Below are positions 1-8,276 of a DNA stretch of 8,276 bases, in pieces (position 1 is the stretch's first letter; every line of letters begins with the position of its first letter). The notes beneath the pieces were generated by a model. That model was not told the origin of the DNA. It did no database searches and saw only the letters and a program-made list of their open reading frames with translations. The position numbers and the translations under genes were made by a program. Source of the DNA: a virus. Taxonomy: Duplodnaviria; Heunggongvirae; Uroviricota; Caudoviricetes. The stretch is taken from IMG/VR virus record IMGVR_UViG_2513237361_000010. One strand, 5' to 3'.

Positions 1-435
1 ATGTCCGGTAATATCTATACGCTGTACAAATCCCACTGTGAAAATGTTGGAAAGTATCGGGGCATTGAAATCAGTGGGGTAGTGTCATCAGTCGAAATAA
101 GCAAAGTTGAATCAAGGGCAACATTACTTACTCTTTTGGACCTTGTCTTACATGAGCACCGGAAGAAATTCGGCACTCCCTATAATCAGTTGAATGGGAA
201 AAAGGCTCTGGTTCACCTTATTCTGATGAAGCATCACTGGATGCCAAAACAGATTAATGAGATGAAATTTGATGAACTTCTTCTTTCAATTCAGGATGAA
301 CTCACACTTGATAAAATAAGCGTAACCGCCCAGAAATTTTTAGATTATCGAGACTGGAGATCACAAATTCATCACTTTGATGATTTTGACGAAAATGAAT
401 GGGAGCCTAATTTGTCTGCACAATATCTAAAGTAA
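1..435 (+). CDS. hypothetical protein, low-GC orphan (moron-like) gene
   Basis: 144-codon ORF beginning at the window edge ATG, so the true start and promoter are unverified. Markedly AT-rich compared with the rest of the window. No motif I recognise; acidic stretch DDFDENEWE near the C-terminus. Opposite in orientation to the adjacent leftward PL-like promoter. Confidence 0.5.
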   Translation: MSGNIYTLYKSHCENVGKYRGIEISGVVSSVEISKVESRATLLTLLDLVLHEHRKKFGTPYNQLNGKKALVHLILMKHHWMPKQINEMKFDELLLSIQDELTLDKISVTAQKFLDYRDWRSQIHHFDDFDENEWEPNLSAQYLK

Positions 436-613
436 CATCCTGTGATAAAACCGTGATTTCCTGATCCAGTTTTTTTAAGGAGTCTATTGTTTCCTGTCGA
501 TAAGACAGCACTTCACGAAGCTGGTTTATAGCTGCCAGCTTCTTTGTCATCCACTCATAAATTTCCTCATCTGTGTAGCCAGGCGCGACGATTTTGGGTT
601 CTGTTTTGTGCAT
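407..613 (-). CDS. hypothetical small protein (68 aa), possible first gene of the leftward early operon
   Basis: ATG at 611-613 (minus strand) preceded by GAGGAG at about 6 nt spacing. The track ORF 407..628 uses an upstream TTG. Its 3' end overlaps the 3' end of ORF 1..435 by 29 nt, convergently. No recognisable domain. A plus-strand hairpin (517-542) lies inside it, which lowers confidence. Confidence 0.35.
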   Translation of the reverse strand: MHKTEPKIVAPGYTDEEIYEWMTKKLAAINQLREVLSYRQETIDSLKKLDQEITVLSQDVTLDIVQTN

Positions 614-671
614 TTCACATCTCCTCAAGTTATCAGTTACTTGTTGATGGGGACCAGATTGTTAAAGAGCG

Positions 672-696
672 AAGCGTCCGGTAGGGCGCTTTTTTG
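672..696 (+). terminator. putative intrinsic terminator (GC-rich hairpin plus T6)
   Basis: aagcgtcc (672-679), loop ggta, gggcgctt (684-691): 8-bp stem with one G-U wobble on the plus-strand RNA, followed by a run of six T (690-695). The minus-strand RNA would carry a C-A mismatch and no U tract, so this is plus-strand specific. Confidence 0.5.
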
Positions 697-773
697 TTGC
701 TAACGAATCATCCTGGACTTCATATGCCCCAGGCGGCTACTTCGTGGGCGTCCTGCCTGTTCGTTGTTTCGCT

Positions 774-808
774 TGGGTACATTATGTATCTCATAGGTAC
801 ATTGTCAA
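774..808 (-). promoter_or_regulatory. PL-like leftward sigma70 promoter with overlapping operator half-sites
   Basis: On the minus strand: TTGACA (plus coords 803-808), 16-nt spacer, CATAAT (781-786). Two direct copies of GGTACATT (776-783 and 796-803) overlap the -10 and -35, and match the GGTACA half-sites in the operator region at 1538-1609. Confidence 0.45.
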
Positions 809-812
809 GTAT

Positions 813-835
813 AAAAAAACCTGCCGAAGCAGGTT
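813..835 (-). terminator. intrinsic terminator of the repressor gene
   Basis: Perfect 7-bp inverted repeat aacctgc (818-824) / gcaggtt (829-835) with loop cgaa. On the minus strand it is followed by a 7-nt U tract (plus-strand A run 813-819). Sits 13 nt downstream of the repressor stop codon at 848-850. Confidence 0.65.
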
Positions 836-847
836 CATAAACATTGA

Positions 848-1522
848 TTAGGCTTTGATTTTGTATCTTCTTGGTTTTCCTGAGAAAATCACTGTACCAA
901 TTATAGAGCAATTACCGTTGATCTTAATGTAAGGCTCAGGCCAGTTTGGGTTTAACGCTTTGAGATAACGCTGTGTCCCATCTTCTATCAACCTTTTGAA
1001 GGTGGTTTCACCTGTATCGTGCATCAATGCAATAACGTCGTCACCGTGGCAGGCAGGTACTTCAGGATCGACAAAAATCATGTCTCCCGGGCGGTACTCA
1101 TCAATCATTGAATCACCTATCACCCGCAAGATATAAGTCATTTCCCCGCAGGGTACAGGGCAGGGATATGTTTCTGCTGTGCTCAAATCAACCTCAGAAT
1201 ATCCAACTTCTTTCCATGCTCCGGCCTGTACCCATGATATGACAGGGACTAATGTGATTTGTTTATTAGTGATTGAAACATCAGGTTGTTTTGTGATGTT
1301 CGTTGTCTGGTGTTCTTGATCGAGCCATCCGACAGGCAGGTCGAAACATTTTTCGATGTGTCGTGCCATGCTGTCACCGATATTTTTAGTAGCACCATCT
1401 CCCATAAACCTGCTGGTCTGGGTTGGCTCGCGATCAATCATAGTGGCAAAGGAAGAATTCCCGCCAACACCATCTCTCAGTTTTCTGGCGTTAGACCGCC
1501 GGATGTCATGGATTGTTTTCAT
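848..1522 (-). CDS. CI-like phage repressor, HTH domain plus S24 (LexA/CI-type) autopeptidase domain
   Basis: 224 aa. C-terminal domain carries the S24 signature: Ala-Gly cleavage site (VQAGAW), catalytic Ser in VIGDSM, GDMIFVDP, and catalytic Lys in FKRL. The N-terminal part has HTH-like character. Divergent from the Cro-like gene, with its own terminator. Confidence 0.85.
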   Translation of the reverse strand: MKTIHDIRRSNARKLRDGVGGNSSFATMIDREPTQTSRFMGDGATKNIGDSMARHIEKCFDLPVGWLDQEHQTTNITKQPDVSITNKQITLVPVISWVQAGAWKEVGYSEVDLSTAETYPCPVPCGEMTYILRVIGDSMIDEYRPGDMIFVDPEVPACHGDDVIALMHDTGETTFKRLIEDGTQRYLKALNPNWPEPYIKINGNCSIIGTVIFSGKPRRYKIKA

Positions 1523-1612
1523 AACGAAATTAAAACCCTTGTACCGTTAAGGTACAAGTATCTTGAAGGTTCATTTCAATCATGTAATATGTACACCGGA
1601 GGTACATATTGT
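1523..1612. promoter_or_regulatory. divergent operator/promoter region (PRM-like and PR-like) between repressor and cro-like gene
   Basis: Perfect dyad cttgtacc-N5-ggtacaag (1538-1558) and dyad atatgtac-N7-gtacatat (1587-1609). Candidate rightward promoter: -35 TTGAAG (1563-1568), -10 TAATAT (1585-1590). Candidate leftward promoter: -10 TTTAAT (complement of 1529-1534) only 6 nt from the repressor ATG, implying a leaderless or near-leaderless repressor mRNA as with lambda cI. Confidence 0.55.
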
Positions 1613-1813
1613 ATGAAAGCGTATTGGGACTCTTTAACCAAAGAACAGCAGGGCGAGTTGGCCGGAAAAGTTGGCTCAACACCTGGCTACTTACGGCTGG
1701 TTTTCAATGGTTATAAAAAAGCCAGTTTTGTGCTGGCTAAAAAACTTGAGCAATGCACGTCAGGTGCAATTACGAAATCTGACTTAAGACCGGATATCTA
1801 TCCGAAAGATTAG
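1613..1813 (+). CDS. Cro-like small HTH regulator (Cro/YdaS family)
   Basis: 66 aa. ATG at 1613 preceded by GGAGG (1597-1601). Divergent from the repressor and sharing its operator region. Sequence pattern (ELAGKVGSTPGYL...GAITKSDLRP) resembles small Cro-type prophage regulators. The upstream part of track ORF 1286..1813 is antisense to the repressor and is ignored. Confidence 0.7.
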   Translation: MKAYWDSLTKEQQGELAGKVGSTPGYLRLVFNGYKKASFVLAKKLEQCTSGAITKSDLRPDIYPKD

Positions 1814-1844
1814 CAGAACACTTTCAATTTTTAACCACAGAACG

Positions 1845-2408
1845 ATGAGGCTAATCGTGGGTAAGCATCACTGGAAAATAGAAAAACAGCCTGAGTGGTA
1901 CGTGAAAGCTGTCAGAAAAACTATCGCGGCGTTGCCGGGTGGTTACGCTGAAGCGGCTGACTGGCTCGATGTAACAGAAAACGCTTTATTCAACCGCCTT
2001 CGTGCAGATGGCGATCAGATTTTCCCGCTGGGATGGGCAATGGTTTTACAGCGTGCTGGTGGCACTCACTTCATTGCTGATGCTGTGGCGCAGTCTGCAA
2101 ATGGCGTCTTTGTGTCTCTTCCTGACATCGAGGATGTGGACAACGCCGATATCAACCAACGCCTGCTGGAGGTCATTGAACAGATCGGCAGTTATTCAAA
2201 ACAGATTCGTTCAGCAATTGAAGACGGTGTAGTGGAACCGCATGAGAAGACAGCAATTAATGACGAGCTGTACCTCTCAATTTCGAAGCTGCAGGAGCAT
2301 GCAGCACTGGTCTACAAAATTTTTTGCATTTCAGAAAGTAATGACGCCCGCGAGTGTGCAGCTCCGGGCGCCGTGGCGTGTCGTGACTGTGGAGAAACTA
2401 ACGCATGA
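1845..2408 (+). CDS. YdaT/CII-like early regulatory protein (positional assignment)
   Basis: 187-aa ORF directly after the cro-like gene, the position occupied by cII or ydaT-type genes in lambdoid and rac-like prophages. Its stop overlaps the next start (ATGA at 2405-2408). Family assignment is by synteny and general resemblance only. The start could instead be GTG 1857, which has a GAGG 6 nt upstream. Confidence 0.5.
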
Positions 2409-2743
2409 ACAGTTTAACAACACACTACCGTCGCTCGCAACTGATTGCACTTCCTGTACCGGGTGGAAAAGCGAAGGTGGAGTATTGCTATGCAGTAAAT
2501 GTACCAGGTGACAGGGAAATTGTAACCCACAGCTTTGCAGAGTGGGCTGTGGGTGATTTCAACCGGCAGAAGGAGACAGTCCTTTGCGACAAGTTAACCG
2601 CTGGTTCAAAGATCACTACGGAGTGCCCGTCAGAGTCATTCGTTGGGAGCCGGAAACACAACGTGTTATCTACCTCCGCGAAGGCTATGAGCATGAATGC
2701 TTCAGTCCGCTCGAACAGTTTCGTCGTAAATTCAGGGAAATAG
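2405..2743 (+). CDS. hypothetical protein; C-terminal half doubtful (frame conflict)
   Basis: ATG at 2405 overlaps the stop of the previous gene. The first ~58 residues look protein-like. After ~2580 this frame becomes Ser-rich and low-complexity, while the overlapping frame looks like a real protein. Confidence 0.4.
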
Positions 2744-2763
2744 AGGTCGGTCATGAGCACTAA
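2584..2763 (+). CDS. unannotated small ORF (59 aa, TTG start), or the frameshifted C-terminal part of the preceding gene
   Basis: Not in the ORF track (below its length cutoff). AAGGAG at 2570-2575, then an 8-nt spacer, then TTG 2584-2586. Translation [59 protein letters not shown] is rich in W/F/Y and charged residues. Stop at 2761-2763 overlaps the start of the initiator gene. Confidence 0.35.
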
Positions 2764-3694
2764 ATTAACCGGCTATGTATGGGATGGTTGCGCTGCGTCA
2801 GGCATGAAATTATCCAGCGTGGCAATTATGGCCCGCCTGGCTGATTTCAGTAATGACGAAGGTGTGTGCTGGCCATCAATTGAAACCATTGCCCGCCAGA
2901 TTGGTGCGGGGATGAGTACCGTCAGAACGGCTATCGCACGGCTGGAAGCAGAAGGCTGGTTAACGCGTAAGGCGCGTCGCCAGGGTAACCGCAATGCGTC
3001 GAATGTTTATCAGCTTAACGTTGCGAAGCTTCAGGCTGCGGCTTTTTCTCAACTGTCAGATTCTGACCCGTCAAAATCTGACGCATCAAAATCTGACCCG
3101 TCAAAATTTGATGCGTCGAAATCTGGCAAAAAAGCGGGTTTTCACCCGTCAGAATCTGGCGGGGATCCGTCAGTAAAATCAAAACATGATCCGTCAGATA
3201 AAAAAACTTCTCGTCCGGACGCTTCGCAACCGGACACGCAGACGGCTGAACAGGAGTTTTTAACTCGCCATCCTGATGCGGTTGTATTCAGCCCTAAAAA
3301 GCGCCAGTGGGGAACGCAGGATGATTTGACCTGCGCACAGTGGCTCTGGAAGAAAATAATCGCCCTGTACGAGCAGGCTGCCGAATGTGACGGCGAGGTG
3401 GTTCGTCCCAAAGAACCGAACTGGACAGCCTGGGCAAACGAAATTCGCCTGATGTGTGTACAGGATGGGCGTACTCACAAACAAATCTGCGAGATGTACA
3501 GCCGTGTCAGCCGCGATCCGTTCTGGTGCCGTAACGTGCTCAGCCCGTCGAAGCTGCGGGAAAAATGGGATGAGCTTTCCCTGCGCTTATCGCCGTCCGT
3601 CAGCACGTACACCGAAAAACGCGAGGACCCGTACTTCAAAGCCAGTTACGACAACGTGGACTACAGCCAGATCCCGGTAGGATTCAGAGGGTGA
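2753..3694 (+). CDS. replication initiator, lambda O-like architecture (N-terminal HTH DNA-binding domain, iteron-encoded linker, C-terminal domain)
   Basis: 313 aa. ATG at 2753 with GAGG 6 nt upstream. N-terminal region resembles HTH replication-initiator domains. The central low-complexity linker (SDSDPSKSDASKSDPSKFDASKSGKK...) is encoded by DNA iterons, as in lambda O. Stop overlaps the next gene. Confidence 0.7.
   Translation: MSTKLTGYVWDGCAASGMKLSSVAIMARLADFSNDEGVCWPSIETIARQIGAGMSTVRTAIARLEAEGWLTRKARRQGNRNASNVYQLNVAKLQAAAFSQLSDSDPSKSDASKSDPSKFDASKSGKKAGFHPSESGGDPSVKSKHDPSDKKTSRPDASQPDTQTAEQEFLTRHPDAVVFSPKKRQWGTQDDLTCAQWLWKKIIALYEQAAECDGEVVRPKEPNWTAWANEIRLMCVQDGRTHKQICEMYSRVSRDPFWCRNVLSPSKLREKWDELSLRLSPSVSTYTEKREDPYFKASYDNVDYSQIPVGFRG
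3055..3200. repeat. iteron array, putative origin of replication inside the initiator gene
   Basis: 15-bp periodic direct repeats ttctgacccgtcaaa / atctgacgcatcaaa / atctgacccgtcaaa / atttgatgcgtcgaa (3061-3120), with further CCGTCAG copies at 3146, 3167 and 3191. The unit contains the dyad gtcaga / tctgac. The array is followed by an A-rich stretch (3198-3207). Confidence 0.7.
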
Positions 3695-3696
3695 TC

Positions 3697-4185
3697 ATGA
3701 GTCTGTTAAATGACGTTCAGAAATTCATTGAAGCCCATCCGGGGTGTACTTCCGGAGACATTGCGGATGCTTTTGCAGGTTACTCACGGCAGCGCGTTCT
3801 GCAGTCTGCAAGCAAGTTACGTCAGAGTGGGCGTGTGGCTCACCGTTGTGAAGGGGATACACGCAGACATTTCCCGCGCCTGACTGAGAGAGCGCAGGAG
3901 CCGGAACCACAACCAGTTCGTGAAACCAGACCTGTGCGCAATTTCTATGTCGGCACTAACGATCCCCGGGTGATTTTGTGCCTGACCCGCCAGGCTGAAG
4001 AACTGGAGTCAAGGGGCTTATACCGTCGTGCTGCAACCGTGTGGATGGCGGCATTCCGTGAAAGCCACTCCCAGCCAGAACGAAACAATTTTCTGGCGCG
4101 TCGTGAGCGGTGCTTACGGAAAAGCAGCAAGCGCGCTGCATCGGGTGAAGAGTGGTATCTGTCAGGGAATTACGTGGGGGCGTAA
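3697..4185 (+). CDS. PerC-family-like transcriptional regulator with N-terminal winged-helix-like extension
   Basis: C-terminal region AEELESRGLYRRAATVWMAAF...ERNNFLARRERCLRKS matches the PerC/Pch signature (LE..GLWRRAA..W ... RR..C). The track ORF starts at GTG 3691; ATG 3697 is preferred. Stop TAA 4183-4185 overlaps the next ATG (TAATG). Confidence 0.65.
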   Translation: MSLLNDVQKFIEAHPGCTSGDIADAFAGYSRQRVLQSASKLRQSGRVAHRCEGDTRRHFPRLTERAQEPEPQPVRETRPVRNFYVGTNDPRVILCLTRQAEELESRGLYRRAATVWMAAFRESHSQPERNNFLARRERCLRKSSKRAASGEEWYLSGNYVGA

Positions 4186-4511
4186 TGACGACGTTAACTC
4201 AATGCCAGCAGCAGGTGCTGGATATGCTGATTTCTTATCAGAAAGAGCGTGGCTTTCCGCCAACCAATCAGGAGGTGGCAACCATGCTGGGATACCGTTC
4301 GGTGAATGCAGCGGTGGAGCATCTTCGCGCACTGGAGAAAAAAGGTGTCATCACGATAAAGCGTGGCGTGGCCCGGGGTATCACTCTTCATACCGCGGTG
4401 GAGGACGACGACAGCGAGGCGGTCGGGATTATCCGCGCACTGCTTGCCGGTGAGGCAAACGCCAGGCTGCGTGCAGCCCACTGGTTACATGAGAGGGGCC
4501 TGAAAGTATGA
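4185..4511 (+). CDS. LexA-like protein: LexA N-terminal DNA-binding domain and hinge only, no S24 peptidase domain
   Basis: 108 aa. MTTLTQCQQQVLDMLISYQKERGFPPTNQEVATMLGYRSVNAAVEHLRALEKKGVITIKRGVARGITL aligns by eye with E. coli LexA residues 1-70, including recognition helix NAAxEHL. It is followed by an acidic hinge (VEDDDSE) and a VG..AGE remnant of the cleavage region, and ends about 25 residues later. GGGGG sits upstream of ATG 4185; the stop overlaps the rusA start (ATGA). Confidence 0.8.
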   Translation: MTTLTQCQQQVLDMLISYQKERGFPPTNQEVATMLGYRSVNAAVEHLRALEKKGVITIKRGVARGITLHTAVEDDDSEAVGIIRALLAGEANARLRAAHWLHERGLKV

Positions 4512-4897
4512 AGCTAATACTGCCTTTTCCGCCCAGCGTGAACACGTACTGGCGACACCCCAACAAAGGGGCGTTTGCAGGTAAGAGCCTGATAAGCGCG
4601 GCGGGGCGCAAATTCCAGAGCGCGGCGTGTGCAGCAATAGTTGAGCAGTTACGTCGTCTGCCAAAACCAACGTCGGCACCTGCTTCAGTGGAGATCGTGT
4701 TGTTTCCTCCGGATAACCGGATCCGCGATCTGGACAACTATAACAAGGCGCTGTTTGACGCCCTGACCCACGCGGGTGTGTGGGAAGACGACAGTCAGGT
4801 GAAAAGAATGCTGGTGGAGTGGGGACCGGTTATCCCGGAAGGGAAGGTCGAGATCACTATCAGTAAGTACGAGAAAACGGCGGGTGCAGCCGCCTGA
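4508..4897 (+). CDS. rusA: RusA Holliday junction resolvase
   Basis: 129 aa. Motifs LPFPPSVNTYWR and DLDNYNKALFDALTHAGVWEDDSQV match the RusA family, including the acidic catalytic region. A typical lambdoid NinR-region gene. Confidence 0.9.
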   Translation: MKLILPFPPSVNTYWRHPNKGAFAGKSLISAAGRKFQSAACAAIVEQLRRLPKPTSAPASVEIVLFPPDNRIRDLDNYNKALFDALTHAGVWEDDSQVKRMLVEWGPVIPEGKVEITISKYEKTAGAAA

Positions 4898-4916
4898 TCA
4901 AGAGGAGAAACGAAGT

Positions 4917-5159
4917 ATGAATAATCTGATGGTCATTGATGGTATTGAAGTTCGTCGTGATGCTTATGGGCGTTACAGCCTGAACGATCTGCATCGCGCA
5001 GCAGTAGCATCTGGTGCAAATGCCAGAACCAAGGAGCCAGGAAAGTTTCTTTCCAGCCAACAAACTGTTGAACTTGTTCATGAATTGACCAACACCCAGA
5101 ATTTGGGTGTTGACCCGGTGAGTGTGATTCATGGGGGAAATGAACGGGGAACGCCGTAA
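4917..5159 (+). CDS. KilA-N domain protein, apparently truncated
   Basis: ATG at 4917 with GAGGAG 9 nt upstream (the track ORF starts at GTG 4884). The pattern IDGIEVRRDAYGRYSLNDLHRAA...PGKFL...GGNERGT resembles the N-terminal half of KilA-N / antirepressor N-domains. The ORF stops right after the GG..GT motif and no frame continues the domain. Confidence 0.55.
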   Translation: MNNLMVIDGIEVRRDAYGRYSLNDLHRAAVASGANARTKEPGKFLSSQQTVELVHELTNTQNLGVDPVSVIHGGNERGTP

Positions 5160-5472
5160 ATTCAGTATCCTTGTGCGTATCCTCGCTGACGGGCGCACCA
5201 CAGACATCCCGCTGGGGCGTTTTCTGCGGGAATTTACCTGTGACCGTCCTGACCTGTTTAAACGCAGCCCCGTAAACCGGCATGCGGTACTGAAAGAAAT
5301 GGCCGGAGACCCGGAATTACAGAAATGGCGGGAGAAATATCTGGATATTTACCCGCAGGACCCTGTTCCGGTCAGCCGGGCGGCACCGGTGGCGCGGGAA
5401 TGGCGGGAAATTCCCCGCACGGAGCCTGACCCGGAAATCACCCCGGATAACAGTTACCGCAATTATCTGTAA
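5131..5472 (+). CDS. hypothetical protein
   Basis: 113-aa ORF overlapping the 3' end of the KilA-N ORF by 29 nt in another frame. Alternative ATG at 5140. Higher GC than upstream genes. No recognisable motif. Confidence 0.45.
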   Translation: MGEMNGERRKFSILVRILADGRTTDIPLGRFLREFTCDRPDLFKRSPVNRHAVLKEMAGDPELQKWREKYLDIYPQDPVPVSRAAPVAREWREIPRTEPDPEITPDNSYRNYL

Positions 5473-5500
5473 TTAAAAAACGACACCCGAAAAATTAAAT

Positions 5501-5526
5501 GTGCGTATTCGCGCAGGGATACGCAC
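5501..5526. promoter_or_regulatory. perfect 8-bp inverted repeat (gtgcgtat-N10-atacgcac), candidate operator or RNA stem-loop
   Basis: Lies in the only sizeable intergenic gap of the rightward operon (5473-5607). No U tract follows, so it is unlikely to be an intrinsic terminator. Confidence 0.4.
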
Positions 5527-5545
5527 GTCTTCAGGAGACGCAGAT

Positions 5546-5611
5546 ATGCCTTATCAGTTAATGCAACCGGCACGGAATGCAGTCATCTGTCACAGGGAGG
5601 AAAGCAAATGA
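5546..5611 (+). CDS. possible 21-codon upstream ORF / leader peptide ([21 protein letters not shown])
   Basis: AGGAG (5533-5537) 8 nt upstream of ATG 5546. Its stop TGA 5609-5611 overlaps the ATG of the next gene (ATGA). Could be a chance ORF. Confidence 0.25.
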
Positions 5612-5928
5612 AAACCCCCTTACCGCCCGTCTTACGCGCAGCCCTTTACCGTCGCGCTGTCGCCTGTGCCTGGCTGACCGTGTGCGAACGTCAGCACCGC
5701 TACCCGCATCTCACCCTTGAATCACTGGAGGCGGCCATCGCCGCTGAGCTGGAAGGCTTTTATCTGCGCCAGCACGGTGAGGAAAAAGGGCGTCAGATAG
5801 CCTGTGCCCTGCTGGAAGATTTAATGGAATCCGGCCCCCTGAAGGCCGCGCCGTCGCTGTCCTTTCTCGGGCTGGTTGTGATGGATGAACTCTGTGCCCG
5901 TCACATAAAAGCGCCGGTACTGCACTGA
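5608..5928 (+). CDS. hypothetical protein immediately upstream of the primase
   Basis: 106 aa. GGGAGG 7 nt upstream of ATG 5608. Stop TGA 5926-5928 overlaps the primase RBS (AGGAGA). No recognisable motif. Confidence 0.6.
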
Positions 5929-5942
5929 AGGAGAACAACACC

Positions 5943-8276
5943 ATGAAAATGAACGTAACCGCCACCGTCAGCCATGCACTCGGCCACTGGCCGCGTATTC
6001 TCCCGGCGCTGGGGATTCAGGTGCTGAAAAACCGTCATCAGCCCTGTCCGGTCTGTGGCGGGAGTGACCGCTTCCGTTTTGATGACAGGGAGGGGCGCGG
6101 CACCTGGTACTGCAATCAGTGTGGTGCCGGTGACGGCCTGAAACTGGTTGAAAAGGTGTTTGGTGTTTCCCCGTCCGACGCGGCCACAAAGGTGGCTGCC
6201 GTGACCGGCAGTCTGCCCCCGGCTGACCCGGCAGTGACGGCCGCCGCCGTTGCTGAAACAGAAGCCGCCCGGAAGAACGCCGCCGCACTGGCACAAACCC
6301 TGATGGCGAAAACCCGTCCCGGAACCGGTAACGCCTACCTGACCCGCAAGGGCTTTCCCGGCCGGGAATGCCGGATGCTGACCGGCACACACAGAGCCGG
6401 TGGCGTGAGCTGGCGCGCCGGTGACCTTGTGGTGCCACTGTATGACGACAGCGGCGAACTGGTTAACCTTCAGTTAATCAGTGCTGACGGCCGTAAGCGC
6501 ACCCTGAAAGGCGGACAGGTCAGGGGCACCTGTCACATCCTTGAAGGACAGAATCAGGCCGGAAAACGTCTGTGGATAGCGGAGGGATACGCGACCGCAC
6601 TTACCGTACATCACCTGACCGGTGAAACGGTGATGGTGGCGCTTTCTTCCGTGAACCTCCTTTCTCTGGCCAGCCTTGCCCGGCAGAAGCATCCGGCCTG
6701 TCAGATTGTCCTTGCCGCAGACCGTGACCTCAGCGGTGACGGCCAGAAAAAAGCCGCCGCAGCCGCAGATGCGTGTGAAGGTGTTGTTGCCCTGCCGCCG
6801 GTCTTCGGTGACTGGAATGATGCCTTCACGCAGTACGGCGGGGAAGCCACCCGTAAGGCCATTTATGATGCCATCCGGCCACCGGCTGAAAGCCCGTTCG
6901 ACACCATGAGCGAAGCGGAGTTTTCCGCCATGAGTACCAGCGAAAAGGCCATGCGTATCTATGAGCATTACGGCGAGGCGCTCGCGGTCGATGCCAACGG
7001 CCAGCTTCTGTCCCGCTATGAAAATGGTGTCTGGAAGGTGCTGCCGCCACAGGACTTTGCCCGGGATGTGGCCGGGCTGTTTCAGCGGCTGCGCGCGCCG
7101 TTCTCCTCCGGGAAGGTGGCCTCCGTGGTGGACACCCTGAAGCTGATTATTCCGCAGCAGGAAGCCCCCTCCCGCTGCCTGATTGGCTTTCGTAACGGCG
7201 TGCTCGACACGCAGAACGGCACGTTCCACCCGCACAGTCCGTCACACTGGATGCGTACCCTGTGCGATGTGGATTTCACCCCGCCGGTGGAAGGGGAAAC
7301 GCTGGAAACCCACGCCCCCGCGTTCTGGCGCTGGCTTGACCGTGCCGCCGGTGGCCGTGCGGAAAAACGCGACGTGATTCTGGCCGCACTGTTTATGGTG
7401 CTGGCAAACCGCTATGACTGGCAGCTCTTTCTGGAGGTGACCGGTCCCGGCGGCAGCGGCAAAAGTATCATGGCCGAAATAGCCACCCTGCTGGCCGGGG
7501 AGGATAACGCCACGTCGGCCACCATCGAGACGCTGGAATCCCCGCGTGAACGTGCCGCGTTAACTGGCTTCTCACTGATACGCCTGCCGGACCAGGAAAA
7601 ATGGAGCGGCGACGGAGCCGGACTCAAGGCCATCACCGGCGGCGATGCGGTGTCCGTTGACCCGAAATACCGGGATGCGTACTCCACGCACATCCCGGCG
7701 GTGATTCTGGCCGTGAACAATAACCCGATGCGCTTCACCGACCGCAGCGGCGGCGTGTCACGCCGGCGGGTGATTATTCACTTCCCGGAACAGATAGCCC
7801 CGCAGGAGCGCGACCCGCAGCTTAAGGACAAAATCACCCGCGAGCTGGCGGTCATCGTGCGTCACCTGATGCAGAAGTTCAGCGACCCGATGCTCGCCCG
7901 GTCACTGCTTCAGTCCCAGCAGAACTCAGACGAGGCGCTGAACATCAAACGGGATGCCGACCCGACGTTTGATTTTATCGGCTATCTGGAAACCCTGCCG
8001 CAGACCAGCGGCATGTATATGGGGAACGCCAGTATCATCCCGCGTAATTACCGTAAATACCTCTATCACGCCTATCTGGCCTACATGGAGGCAAACGGCT
8101 ACCGGAATGTACTCAGTCTGAAAATGTTCGGGCTGGGGCTGCCGGTGATGCTGAAGGAATACGGGCTGAATTACGAGAAGCGCCATACCAAACAGGGGAT
8201 ACAGACCAACCTGACGCTGAAAGAGGAAAGCTACGGCGACTGGCTGCCAAAATGTGACGACCCTACAACAGCCTGA
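5943..8276 (+). CDS. P4 alpha-type primase-helicase (zinc-ribbon, TOPRIM primase domain, P-loop NTPase/helicase domain)
   Basis: 777 aa. N-terminal zinc ribbon CPVCGG...YCNQCG. TOPRIM-like region with the acidic motifs LWIAEGYATAL and VLAADRDLSGDGQ. Walker A GPGGSGKS, with a downstream VILAVNNNP motif typical of SF3-type helicase domains. Strong RBS AGGAGA 9 nt upstream. Ends exactly at the window end. Confidence 0.9.
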   Translation: MKMNVTATVSHALGHWPRILPALGIQVLKNRHQPCPVCGGSDRFRFDDREGRGTWYCNQCGAGDGLKLVEKVFGVSPSDAATKVAAVTGSLPPADPAVTAAAVAETEAARKNAAALAQTLMAKTRPGTGNAYLTRKGFPGRECRMLTGTHRAGGVSWRAGDLVVPLYDDSGELVNLQLISADGRKRTLKGGQVRGTCHILEGQNQAGKRLWIAEGYATALTVHHLTGETVMVALSSVNLLSLASLARQKHPACQIVLAADRDLSGDGQKKAAAAADACEGVVALPPVFGDWNDAFTQYGGEATRKAIYDAIRPPAESPFDTMSEAEFSAMSTSEKAMRIYEHYGEALAVDANGQLLSRYENGVWKVLPPQDFARDVAGLFQRLRAPFSSGKVASVVDTLKLIIPQQEAPSRCLIGFRNGVLDTQNGTFHPHSPSHWMRTLCDVDFTPPVEGETLETHAPAFWRWLDRAAGGRAEKRDVILAALFMVLANRYDWQLFLEVTGPGGSGKSIMAEIATLLAGEDNATSATIETLESPRERAALTGFSLIRLPDQEKWSGDGAGLKAITGGDAVSVDPKYRDAYSTHIPAVILAVNNNPMRFTDRSGGVSRRRVIIHFPEQIAPQERDPQLKDKITRELAVIVRHLMQKFSDPMLARSLLQSQQNSDEALNIKRDADPTFDFIGYLETLPQTSGMYMGNASIIPRNYRKYLYHAYLAYMEANGYRNVLSLKMFGLGLPVMLKEYGLNYEKRHTKQGIQTNLTLKEESYGDWLPKCDDPTTA

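Follow-up and report, generated by a model that had tools for sequence, protein, structure and literature searches.

The DNA analysed here is a stretch of 8,276 nucleotides (nt), called the window in the following, from a virus of the Caudoviricetes (IMG/VR record IMGVR_UViG_2513237361_000010). Its first 435 positions encode, on the plus strand, a protein of 144 amino acids (aa) belonging to the ECs1072 family, and as an earlier note made from the sequence alone had noticed, this gene faces a leftward promoter resembling an early-left promoter, PL (TTGACA-16-CATAAT at 808..781 on the minus strand, 11/12 consensus matches, with GGTACAT operator-like repeats read in the sequence). Between gene and promoter lie a small convergent open reading frame (ORF), two terminator-like hairpins on the plus strand and, on the strand transcribed from PL, a boxA and a structured leader RNA. 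Taken together, the locus is probably best explained by a complete ECs1072 accessory gene in a fixed, backward-oriented cargo slot inside the PL operon, with proposed roles of the surrounding elements in insulation and as a leader.

The ECs1072 cargo gene

The cargo gene (1..435, plus strand) starts with ATG and is complete. Residues 4-144 match positions 2-142 of the 142 positions of the profile NF033230 ('ECs1072 family phage-associated protein') with 155.7 bits at a cut-off of 70, and phrog_5286 is matched from 1 to 144 of 144 positions with an E value of 1e-89. Since the family profiles are matched over their full length, it can be ruled out that the ORF is a fragment of a longer gene, in particular the C-terminal part of one extending upstream of the window, which the earlier note had named as the finding that would overturn its interpretation. 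The same note had described the ORF as much more AT-rich than the rest of the element. Positions 1-435 do show the lowest GC content of the element (0.382), but the flanking segments also lie under the element mean, with 0.442 for positions 436-847 and 0.449 for the repressor gene, compared to 0.554 for positions 1523-8276. The ratio of non-synonymous to synonymous substitution rates (dN/dS) of 0.23 between the alleles of Escherichia coli and E. albertii indicates that the gene is under purifying selection.

A profile search of 1.84 billion representatives yielded 76 clusters, nearly all of them single-domain proteins of 145-155 aa, and in a word-indexed search the relatives of the 144-aa protein were enterobacterial only. 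A narrower profile scan of genome contigs yielded only three loci, the broad alignment having no conserved stretch to scan with. Homologs in Serratia (L009 3992-4634) and in locus L152 (3001-3462) were observed at another classical cargo site, which extends from the Q-like antiterminator to the holin/lysis genes. Across 46 family members W134 was the sole invariant residue, and L50, R54, L64, G66, A69 and H72 were near-invariant. The acidic DDFDENEWE segment, which had been picked out beforehand, contains W134 and shows the family consensus FxDxxxxEWxP.

The AlphaFold2 model of the protein was all-helical with a predicted local distance difference test (pLDDT) value of 83, and the cargo protein is a soluble, all-helical protein of 17 kDa without recognisable fold. 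The homology and structure check proposed in the earlier note gave no sequence, fold or defence-library match revealing a function. Pfam showed no match for the 144-aa protein nor for the 46 family members, PADLOC-DB v2 contained no family matching the 144-aa protein or the 68-aa protein encoded opposite to it at E values up to 1, and a profile search of the Protein Data Bank (PDB) with the ECs1072 family stayed empty. The Foldseek list for the PDB was headed by HEPN toxins, but with E values above 1, a probability of about 0.1 and a template modelling (TM) score of about 0.23. An assignment as HEPN-type toxin was rejected, since this fold match is insignificant and R54, H72 and W134 form no Rx4-6H motif. 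The protein family is already catalogued and uncharacterised, and the kind of object, a prophage moron, is also known. The protein would most likely be a factor expressed in the lysogen, directed against competing phages or acting on the host; a more specific role in defence or exclusion is a guess.

A cargo slot with exchangeable genes

For a census of the locus, 120 viral contigs with the core of the leader RNA were gathered and what follows the core was classified, 91 loci having enough sequence. As backward cargo we counted any ORF in backward orientation with 120 aa or more whose end lay no more than 300 nt away. Such cargo was present in 55 of 55 loci having the hairpin of positions 671-696 and/or the boxA, and missing in 35 of the 36 loci without hairpin and boxA, the exception being the e14 type with ymfI. 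The hairpin co-occurred with cargo in all hairpin-bearing loci (53/53); two loci showed the hairpin without boxA and two the boxA without hairpin.

The genes found in the slot comprise at least five mutually unrelated types. Besides ECs1072 (35 loci) and ymfI, these are a 159/164-aa protein predicted to have two transmembrane helices, a secreted protein of 170 aa, and a coiled-coil protein of about 173 aa with a zinc ribbon. Neither Pfam nor PADLOC gave a significant match for any of the slot cargo proteins. Ahead of the 159/164-aa cargo (L026, L039) lies a separate short ORF, which in L026 has about 27 aa, and therefore some slot cassettes contain two genes. The occurrence of five unrelated cargo types, or of an empty slot, at the same position in sister prophages supports the view of the earlier note that the ORF is a moron in a variable cargo slot. 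The slot is of a type found in SfIV/SfV/e14-like lambdoid prophages and is framed by an upstream region on the left and by the terminator at 671-696 on the right.

On the left, the border consists of a region of about 200 nt that is common to four cargo types and ends with TTATTCCCCAACAAC, where the homology between cassettes stops. A second repeat, TATCCCCAACAAC, usually follows 18 nt after TTATTCCCCAACAAC, with 34 nt from start to start (L001 8800-9000, just left of window position 1). The same element was found ahead of ECs1072 homologs with 55% and 32% protein identity. The region contains no recognisable consensus sigma-70 promoter, and no compensatory RNA changes were seen by eye in the CCCCAACAAC upstream element; it could be a promoter/operator, an element of the 5' untranslated region (UTR), or a recombination boundary. 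ACAAGGA and the GGA of the ribosome-binding site in this region resemble CsrA sites.

The mapping of breakpoints by matches among 5426 complete E. coli genomes showed that positions 1-765/769 travel with different repressors, that positions 638/654-769 are found beside other genes, and that positions 702-769 occur alone in many prophages. These stretches are modules that reassort with different repressors. With regard to the properties by which morons are recognised, the gene lies at a fixed position, being present in some close relatives and absent in others, and it has an own terminator, predicted from sequence as the strand-specific hairpin at 671-696 with its T6. At the place of an own promoter lies the conserved repeat-bearing upstream region shared by four cargo types, without sigma-70 consensus.

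Predicted terminators on the plus strand

The first terminator-like hairpin (517..547, plus strand) lies inside the small ORF and is followed by a weak TTTGT tail. Its stem at 517-542 comprises 9 pairs with -15.6 kcal/mol and a z-score of -4.26, and none of 200 shuffles folded as well. Since there is no sequence variation among alleles, the hairpin is not separable from coding constraint, and with its poor U-tract the site would be a leaky first stop at best.

The second hairpin (671..696, plus strand) comprises a GC stem of 8-9 pairs at 671-692 with a T.G wobble, followed by T6, the T-run reaching to 695. Its fold is strand-specific, with a centroid of about -13 kcal/mol on the plus strand compared to -7.6 kcal/mol (z-score -0.5) on the minus strand; only the plus strand has the T-run 3' of the stem. 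Both the wobble and the T-run persist where the loop is of the common CCTGTAGG variant, and also at the distant locus L012. The hairpin is kept behind five unrelated cargo genes and missing where the cargo is missing; it belongs to the slot and not to ECs1072. We read it as the terminator of the cargo unit, which would shield PL, the operators and the repressor gene from cargo transcription.

Both hairpins had been recognised in the earlier note, as the stem at 517-542 with TTTGT and the stem at 671-692 with the T-run. Its statement that they lie antisense to the small ORF holds true for the first; the second lies opposite the 5' leader of this ORF, upstream of its start. The note had further considered that the region might encode a small RNA ending at 696. 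For such a stand-alone plus-strand small RNA, positions 671-696 would provide a good terminator, located about 260 nt past the stop codon of the cargo gene, but no plus-strand promoter-like site was seen in 436-670, Rfam gave no match, and the same hairpin lies only 26-38 nt behind other cargo genes. In these cases, i.e. the 170-aa and the about 173-aa type, no space is left for a separate small-RNA gene between the cargo stop codon and the hairpin, which is therefore a cargo terminator. The small RNA is thus very improbable, and from the earlier interpretation the moron in its slot is retained and the small RNA is not. A fragment derived from the 3'-UTR and antisense to the small ORF may be formed.

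The terminators also bear on a second alternative, according to which the ECs1072 gene would mainly regulate its own prophage, with convergent transcription or its product tuning PL and the lysis-lysogeny balance instead of acting on other phages or the host. The orientation of the gene, convergent with PL, and the lack of a terminator between gene and PL in locus L150 fit to this explanation. In the SfIV-type prophage group, however, two terminators insulate PL from the gene, unrelated genes fill the same slot, and in other prophages homologs are also located in the interval from the Q-like antiterminator to the lysis genes, which makes a mainly regulatory role improbable.

A structured leader RNA behind PL

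On the opposite strand, a structured RNA of 71 nt (697..767, minus strand) begins about 8-10 nt beyond the predicted PL start. It comprises an outer 6-bp stem around an invariant 26-nt segment, AGGCAGGACGCCCACGAAGUAGCCG, and an inner 5-bp hairpin with the conserved loop GGCAUAYGAA. In an alignment of 11 diverse leader copies, 11 of 14 pairs showed compensatory changes on both sides and 98.1% of the alignment cells were paired; none of 500 shuffles reached the observed values, and slid controls gave 20-47%. RNAalifold resulted in the same two helices. A first minimum free energy fold with a GGGC/GUCC stem was dropped for the covariation-supported CCUGG/CCAGG stem. The covariance model of the leader, R1, scored 91.4 bits at the window leader and 69 bits in the prophage e14.

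The window contains one copy of the leader, and none was found downstream of PR. The RNA was found in more than 50 phage records and is unannotated in all nine temperate phages for which the context was retrieved; each of the nine carries it on the strand of the repressor-side gene of its immunity region and downstream of that gene. The hosts comprise Escherichia, Shigella, Salmonella, Klebsiella, Citrobacter, Yersinia, Pantoea, Pectobacterium and Aeromonas. In Providencia phage PR1 (L146), which is virulent and T5-like, a copy with compensatory stem changes was observed in the terminal repeat, outside a lambdoid immunity region. A search of Rfam 15 with E values up to 5 gave nothing at the features of positions 1-2000, nor in six phage copies of the leader, and a literature search with the invariant core string found no paper.

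The leader RNA resembles HK022 putL in that both are structured RNAs of about 70 nt starting no more than about 10 nt from the PL transcription start, and both belong to lambdoid phages lacking a recognisable N gene (PMC9378689). The window encodes no N-like arginine-rich protein at the head of the PL operon, and leader and putL have the short strings ACGAAC..GGC and CAGGAUGA in common. The arrangement of the helices differs, since in the leader CCAGG forms the 3' strand of the hairpin and AUGA the junction, whereas putL carries CAGGAUGA at the apex of stem II (PMC9378689). Moreover, R1 gave no hit in the HK022 immunity region (putL/putR) at E values up to 10, blastn gave no link between the leader RNA and putL/putR, and the MAFFT alignment was poor. 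On these comparisons the leader RNA is not a member of the put family, and a put-like activity is a candidate only.

The boxA and the untranslated stretch

Directly after the hairpin, the PL transcript carries a boxA (CGCTCTTTAACAA, 671..659, minus strand), whose core GCTCTTTAACAA is matched at 12 of 12 positions at 670..659 on the minus, i.e. transcribed, strand. The same 12-mer is found in all rrn leaders, about 7 times per genome and about 100 nt upstream of 16S rRNA, and CGCTCTTTAACAATC has 13 contiguous bases in common with the rrn leader boxA. In three unrelated settings (L010, L012, L153), the 12-mer or a one-base variant likewise lies ahead of an ECs1072 homolog in antisense orientation. 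Across the cargo gene (406..1) and the next intergenic region, the PL transcript is untranslated over about 550 nt, the minus strand of positions 1-406 containing one 53-aa GTG ORF and otherwise none. Rho terminates untranslated RNA, which BoxA together with Nus factors prevents in rRNA operons and CRISPR arrays (PMC7665894). The boxA is present where a backward gene interrupts translation and missing without such a gene, from which we infer a function that would fit protection from Rho. The likeness to the rrn and CRISPR cases, where BoxA shields from Rho (PMC7665894), consists in a CGCTCTTTAACAATC boxA preceding a long untranslated stretch. Unlike those cases, the boxA of the window lies in a phage early operon, without N protein and without N-type boxB, and its binding of NusB/NusE and any effect on Rho are putative.

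The proximity of both elements allows for another explanation of the hairpin. As a hairpin also lies ahead of boxA in rrn leaders, the structure at 672-696 could act chiefly on the minus strand, forming a nut-like or rrn-like site with boxA, and its terminator shape on the plus strand would be incidental. The hairpin is separated from boxA by 1 nt, and the two are jointly conserved, including in the distant locus L012. On the other hand, as given above, the fold is stronger on the plus strand than on the minus strand owing to the conserved T.G wobble, and only on the plus strand is the stem followed by T6; furthermore, the loop UACC/UACA is unlike the GNRA-like pentaloop of the N type, an N-like arginine-rich protein is missing at the operon head, and each of the two elements occurs without the other in two loci. 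A chiefly minus-strand function is therefore regarded as unlikely, and the hairpin is further treated as the cargo terminator.

The convergent partner ORF

As noticed earlier, a small ORF on the minus strand (407..613) with a good GAGGAG ribosome-binding site converges with the 144-aa gene, which it overlaps by 29 nt. It encodes 68 aa from its ATG, with GAGGAG at 626..621, 7 nt ahead of this start; the mechanical ORF reaches to a TTG at 628. The protein matches phrog_1744 from 1 to 68 of 68 positions and is the first ORF of the PL transcript. It is hydrophilic and acidic, with an isoelectric point of 4.78 and no hydrophobic stretch, and an assignment as type I toxin-antitoxin peptide was rejected for these properties.

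In E. coli the small ORF invariably accompanies ECs1072 (35/35 viral-contig loci of the ECs1072 type). Full-length homologs, again convergent and overlapping at the 3' ends, were found in L150 (39% identity) and L151 (26%), where the neighbouring ECs1072 proteins are only 36% and 30% identical, respectively, and these homologs have the motifs EPxIxAxGY(S/T)xxEIxEWM and LKxLDxxIExLT in common with the 68-aa protein. A weaker relative in Serratia is likewise convergent. Even in distant prophages, ECs1072 is repeatedly accompanied by the 68-aa protein as its convergent partner. The polymorphism of the ORF was too low for an estimate of selection (4 synonymous and 4 non-synonymous sites). At positions 466-473 the window contains a homopolymer (T on the plus strand, A in the small ORF), in which a one-base frameshift leads to common truncated variants (...SLKNWIRKS...), and in L013 an IS1 insertion was observed at about the same codon.

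Since the ORF is the first behind PL, its protein would be made only on induction. In analogy to the self-immunity of BstA/aba, our best guess is that this protein modulates the cargo protein, or acts as its antidote, while the prophage itself grows lytically. Carried further, ECs1072 and the 68-aa protein could form a two-gene defence or toxic system with induction-coupled self-immunity, in which the 144-aa protein acts in the lysogen and is switched off by the PL-driven small protein and by convergent transcription. The recurrence of the convergent, 3'-overlapping pair where the ECs1072 proteins are only 30-36% identical and the strict co-inheritance described above argue for such a system, and abortive-infection genes adjacent to the repressor and equipped with self-immunity, namely BstA/aba, provide a precedent (PMC8585504). 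Against it stand the missing PADLOC, Pfam and structural matches, the homologs without partner (L010, L012, L152, L153) and the often disrupted C-terminus of the partner. This explanation, which refines the slot interpretation rather than replacing it, is possible, yet in our assessment clearly the less probable one.

Prophage context

Positions 1-900 of the window showed hundreds of matches in E. coli chromosomes with 99.6% identity, and 97.8% identity to Shigella phage SfIV. The exact cassette is contained in 402 of the 5426 complete E. coli genomes (about 7%). In the matching genomes, the annotated context is a lambdoid prophage integrated beside a tRNA-Thr gene. From left to right, its minus strand encodes int, xis, yfdT, yfdS, yfdR and a ymfH-like gene, followed by the 144-aa gene (plus strand), the 68-aa gene (minus strand) and the LexA/S24-type repressor gene ymfK (minus strand). 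To the right of the repressor, the plus strand carries ymfT (cro-like), ymfL (cII-like), replication genes and a Q-like antiterminator. In the window, the ymfK-like repressor gene is located at 848..1522 (minus strand; PF00717, 1.5e-26; annotated as ymfK in matching genomes) and is followed by a terminator at 817..836 (minus strand; -11.6 kcal/mol, z-score -4.9). Within positions 1-1900, 9 terminator-like sites were observed compared to 1.4 expected.

The ymfH-like gene left of the slot (L001 8538-8857; also L003, L004 and L005) is flagged as 'frameshifted' in all genomes examined, which suggests an annotation artefact or a programmed shift rather than decay. At the right end of the window (5943-8276) lies a 777-aa ORF with a GC content of 0.58-0.66, far above that of the left end. 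Since the best-matching genome (L001) has different genes at this place, the window is a mosaic.

Comparison with known systems

Mosaic hotspots adjacent to the repressor and carrying defence genes are documented (PMC8585504), and lambda rexAB and BTP1 bstA are, like ECs1072, accessory genes located by the immunity region in such a hotspot (PMC8585504). As with morons of this type, the gene is AT-rich and variable among related phages, it carries a terminator of its own, and its expression is expected in the lysogen. rexAB and bstA are located in the interval from cI to PL and share a transcript with the repressor. The ECs1072 slot, in contrast, is found beyond PL within the early-left operon; it lies on the opposite strand and has a conserved upstream region and borders of its own. 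Neither sequence nor fold relates ECs1072 to RexA/B or BstA.

The prophage e14 of E. coli K-12 is similar in carrying ymfI/ymfJ left of the same repressor type (ymfK), in convergent overlapping layout and with the same leader RNA, but it differs from the window in having no hairpin, no boxA and no CCCCAACAAC upstream region. Homology of the e14 pair ymfI/ymfJ, and of the 173-aa cargo, to the ECs1072/68-aa pair was rejected, since the proteins are unrelated in sequence.

Proposed function of the slot

In the lysogen, the cargo gene would be transcribed towards PL from the conserved upstream region, and its transcripts would be stopped leakily at 517-547 and then at 671-696, so that PL, the operators and the repressor gene would not be reached. 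The opposite strand is the 5' leader of the PL transcript, comprising the 71-nt RNA (767..697), the weak complement of the hairpin, the boxA (671..659) and the 68-aa ORF. After induction, the PL transcript would cross about 550 nt of untranslated antisense cargo before reaching the early-left genes and int/xis, and the boxA with host Nus factors, probably together with the leader RNA, would make the RNA polymerase resistant to Rho and terminators. Strong convergent transcription from PL would silence the cargo gene, and the 68-aa protein, made only when PL fires, would modulate or neutralise the cargo protein during lytic growth.

A more far-reaching version of this proposal regards the locus as an expression socket, in which leader RNA and boxA form a protein-independent antiterminator, analogous to put but from an unrelated RNA family, that carries transcription through the backward cargo, and in which ECs1072 and its 68-aa partner represent a new defence or exclusion system switched off by induction-driven transcription and by the partner. 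We hold this version to be rather improbable.

Several observations weigh against the interpretation as an insulated cargo slot. Loci L150 and L151 retain the gene pair without leader RNA, exact boxA and dedicated plus-strand terminator; the insulation is therefore a trait of the SfIV-type prophage group and not of the ECs1072 family. The partner missing beside the homologs in L010, L012, L152 and L153, and the last third of the 68-aa ORF, which in a minority of genomes is frameshifted in the A-run, interrupted by IS1 or exchanged, count here as well. The hairpin at 517-542 may be a by-product of the coding sequence. The loci of the census are not phylogenetically independent, many being close relatives, and they comprise 33 + 27 distinct sequences and five cargo types. 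Furthermore, since no consensus sigma-70 promoter lies upstream of the ECs1072 gene, we only infer its independent transcription. In a microarray study with uninduced cultures of O157 Sakai, ECs1072 is listed with a significant 2.13-fold change (PMC2241611), which is consistent with expression from a repressed prophage and proves neither strand nor promoter. With these points taken into account, the slot with its proposed insulation and leader roles is still considered the probable explanation.

Significance

The covariation found for the leader RNA is at the level normally demanded for a new RNA family, and the RNA occurs in dozens of temperate phages of Enterobacterales without N. If it is true that the leader is an antiterminator, the expression of the early-left genes in these N-less phages would be explained. 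The by-products of the analysis, i.e. the covariation-backed leader RNA at the position of put, the boxA linked to cargo and the repeat element of the left border, may be more interesting than the gene itself. As a whole, a defined socket consisting of left border, strand-specific terminator, boxA and leader RNA frames at least five unrelated uncharacterised genes, and thereby provides a short, bounded list of candidates for functions expressed in the lysogen, including defence, together with a simple rule to find more of them.

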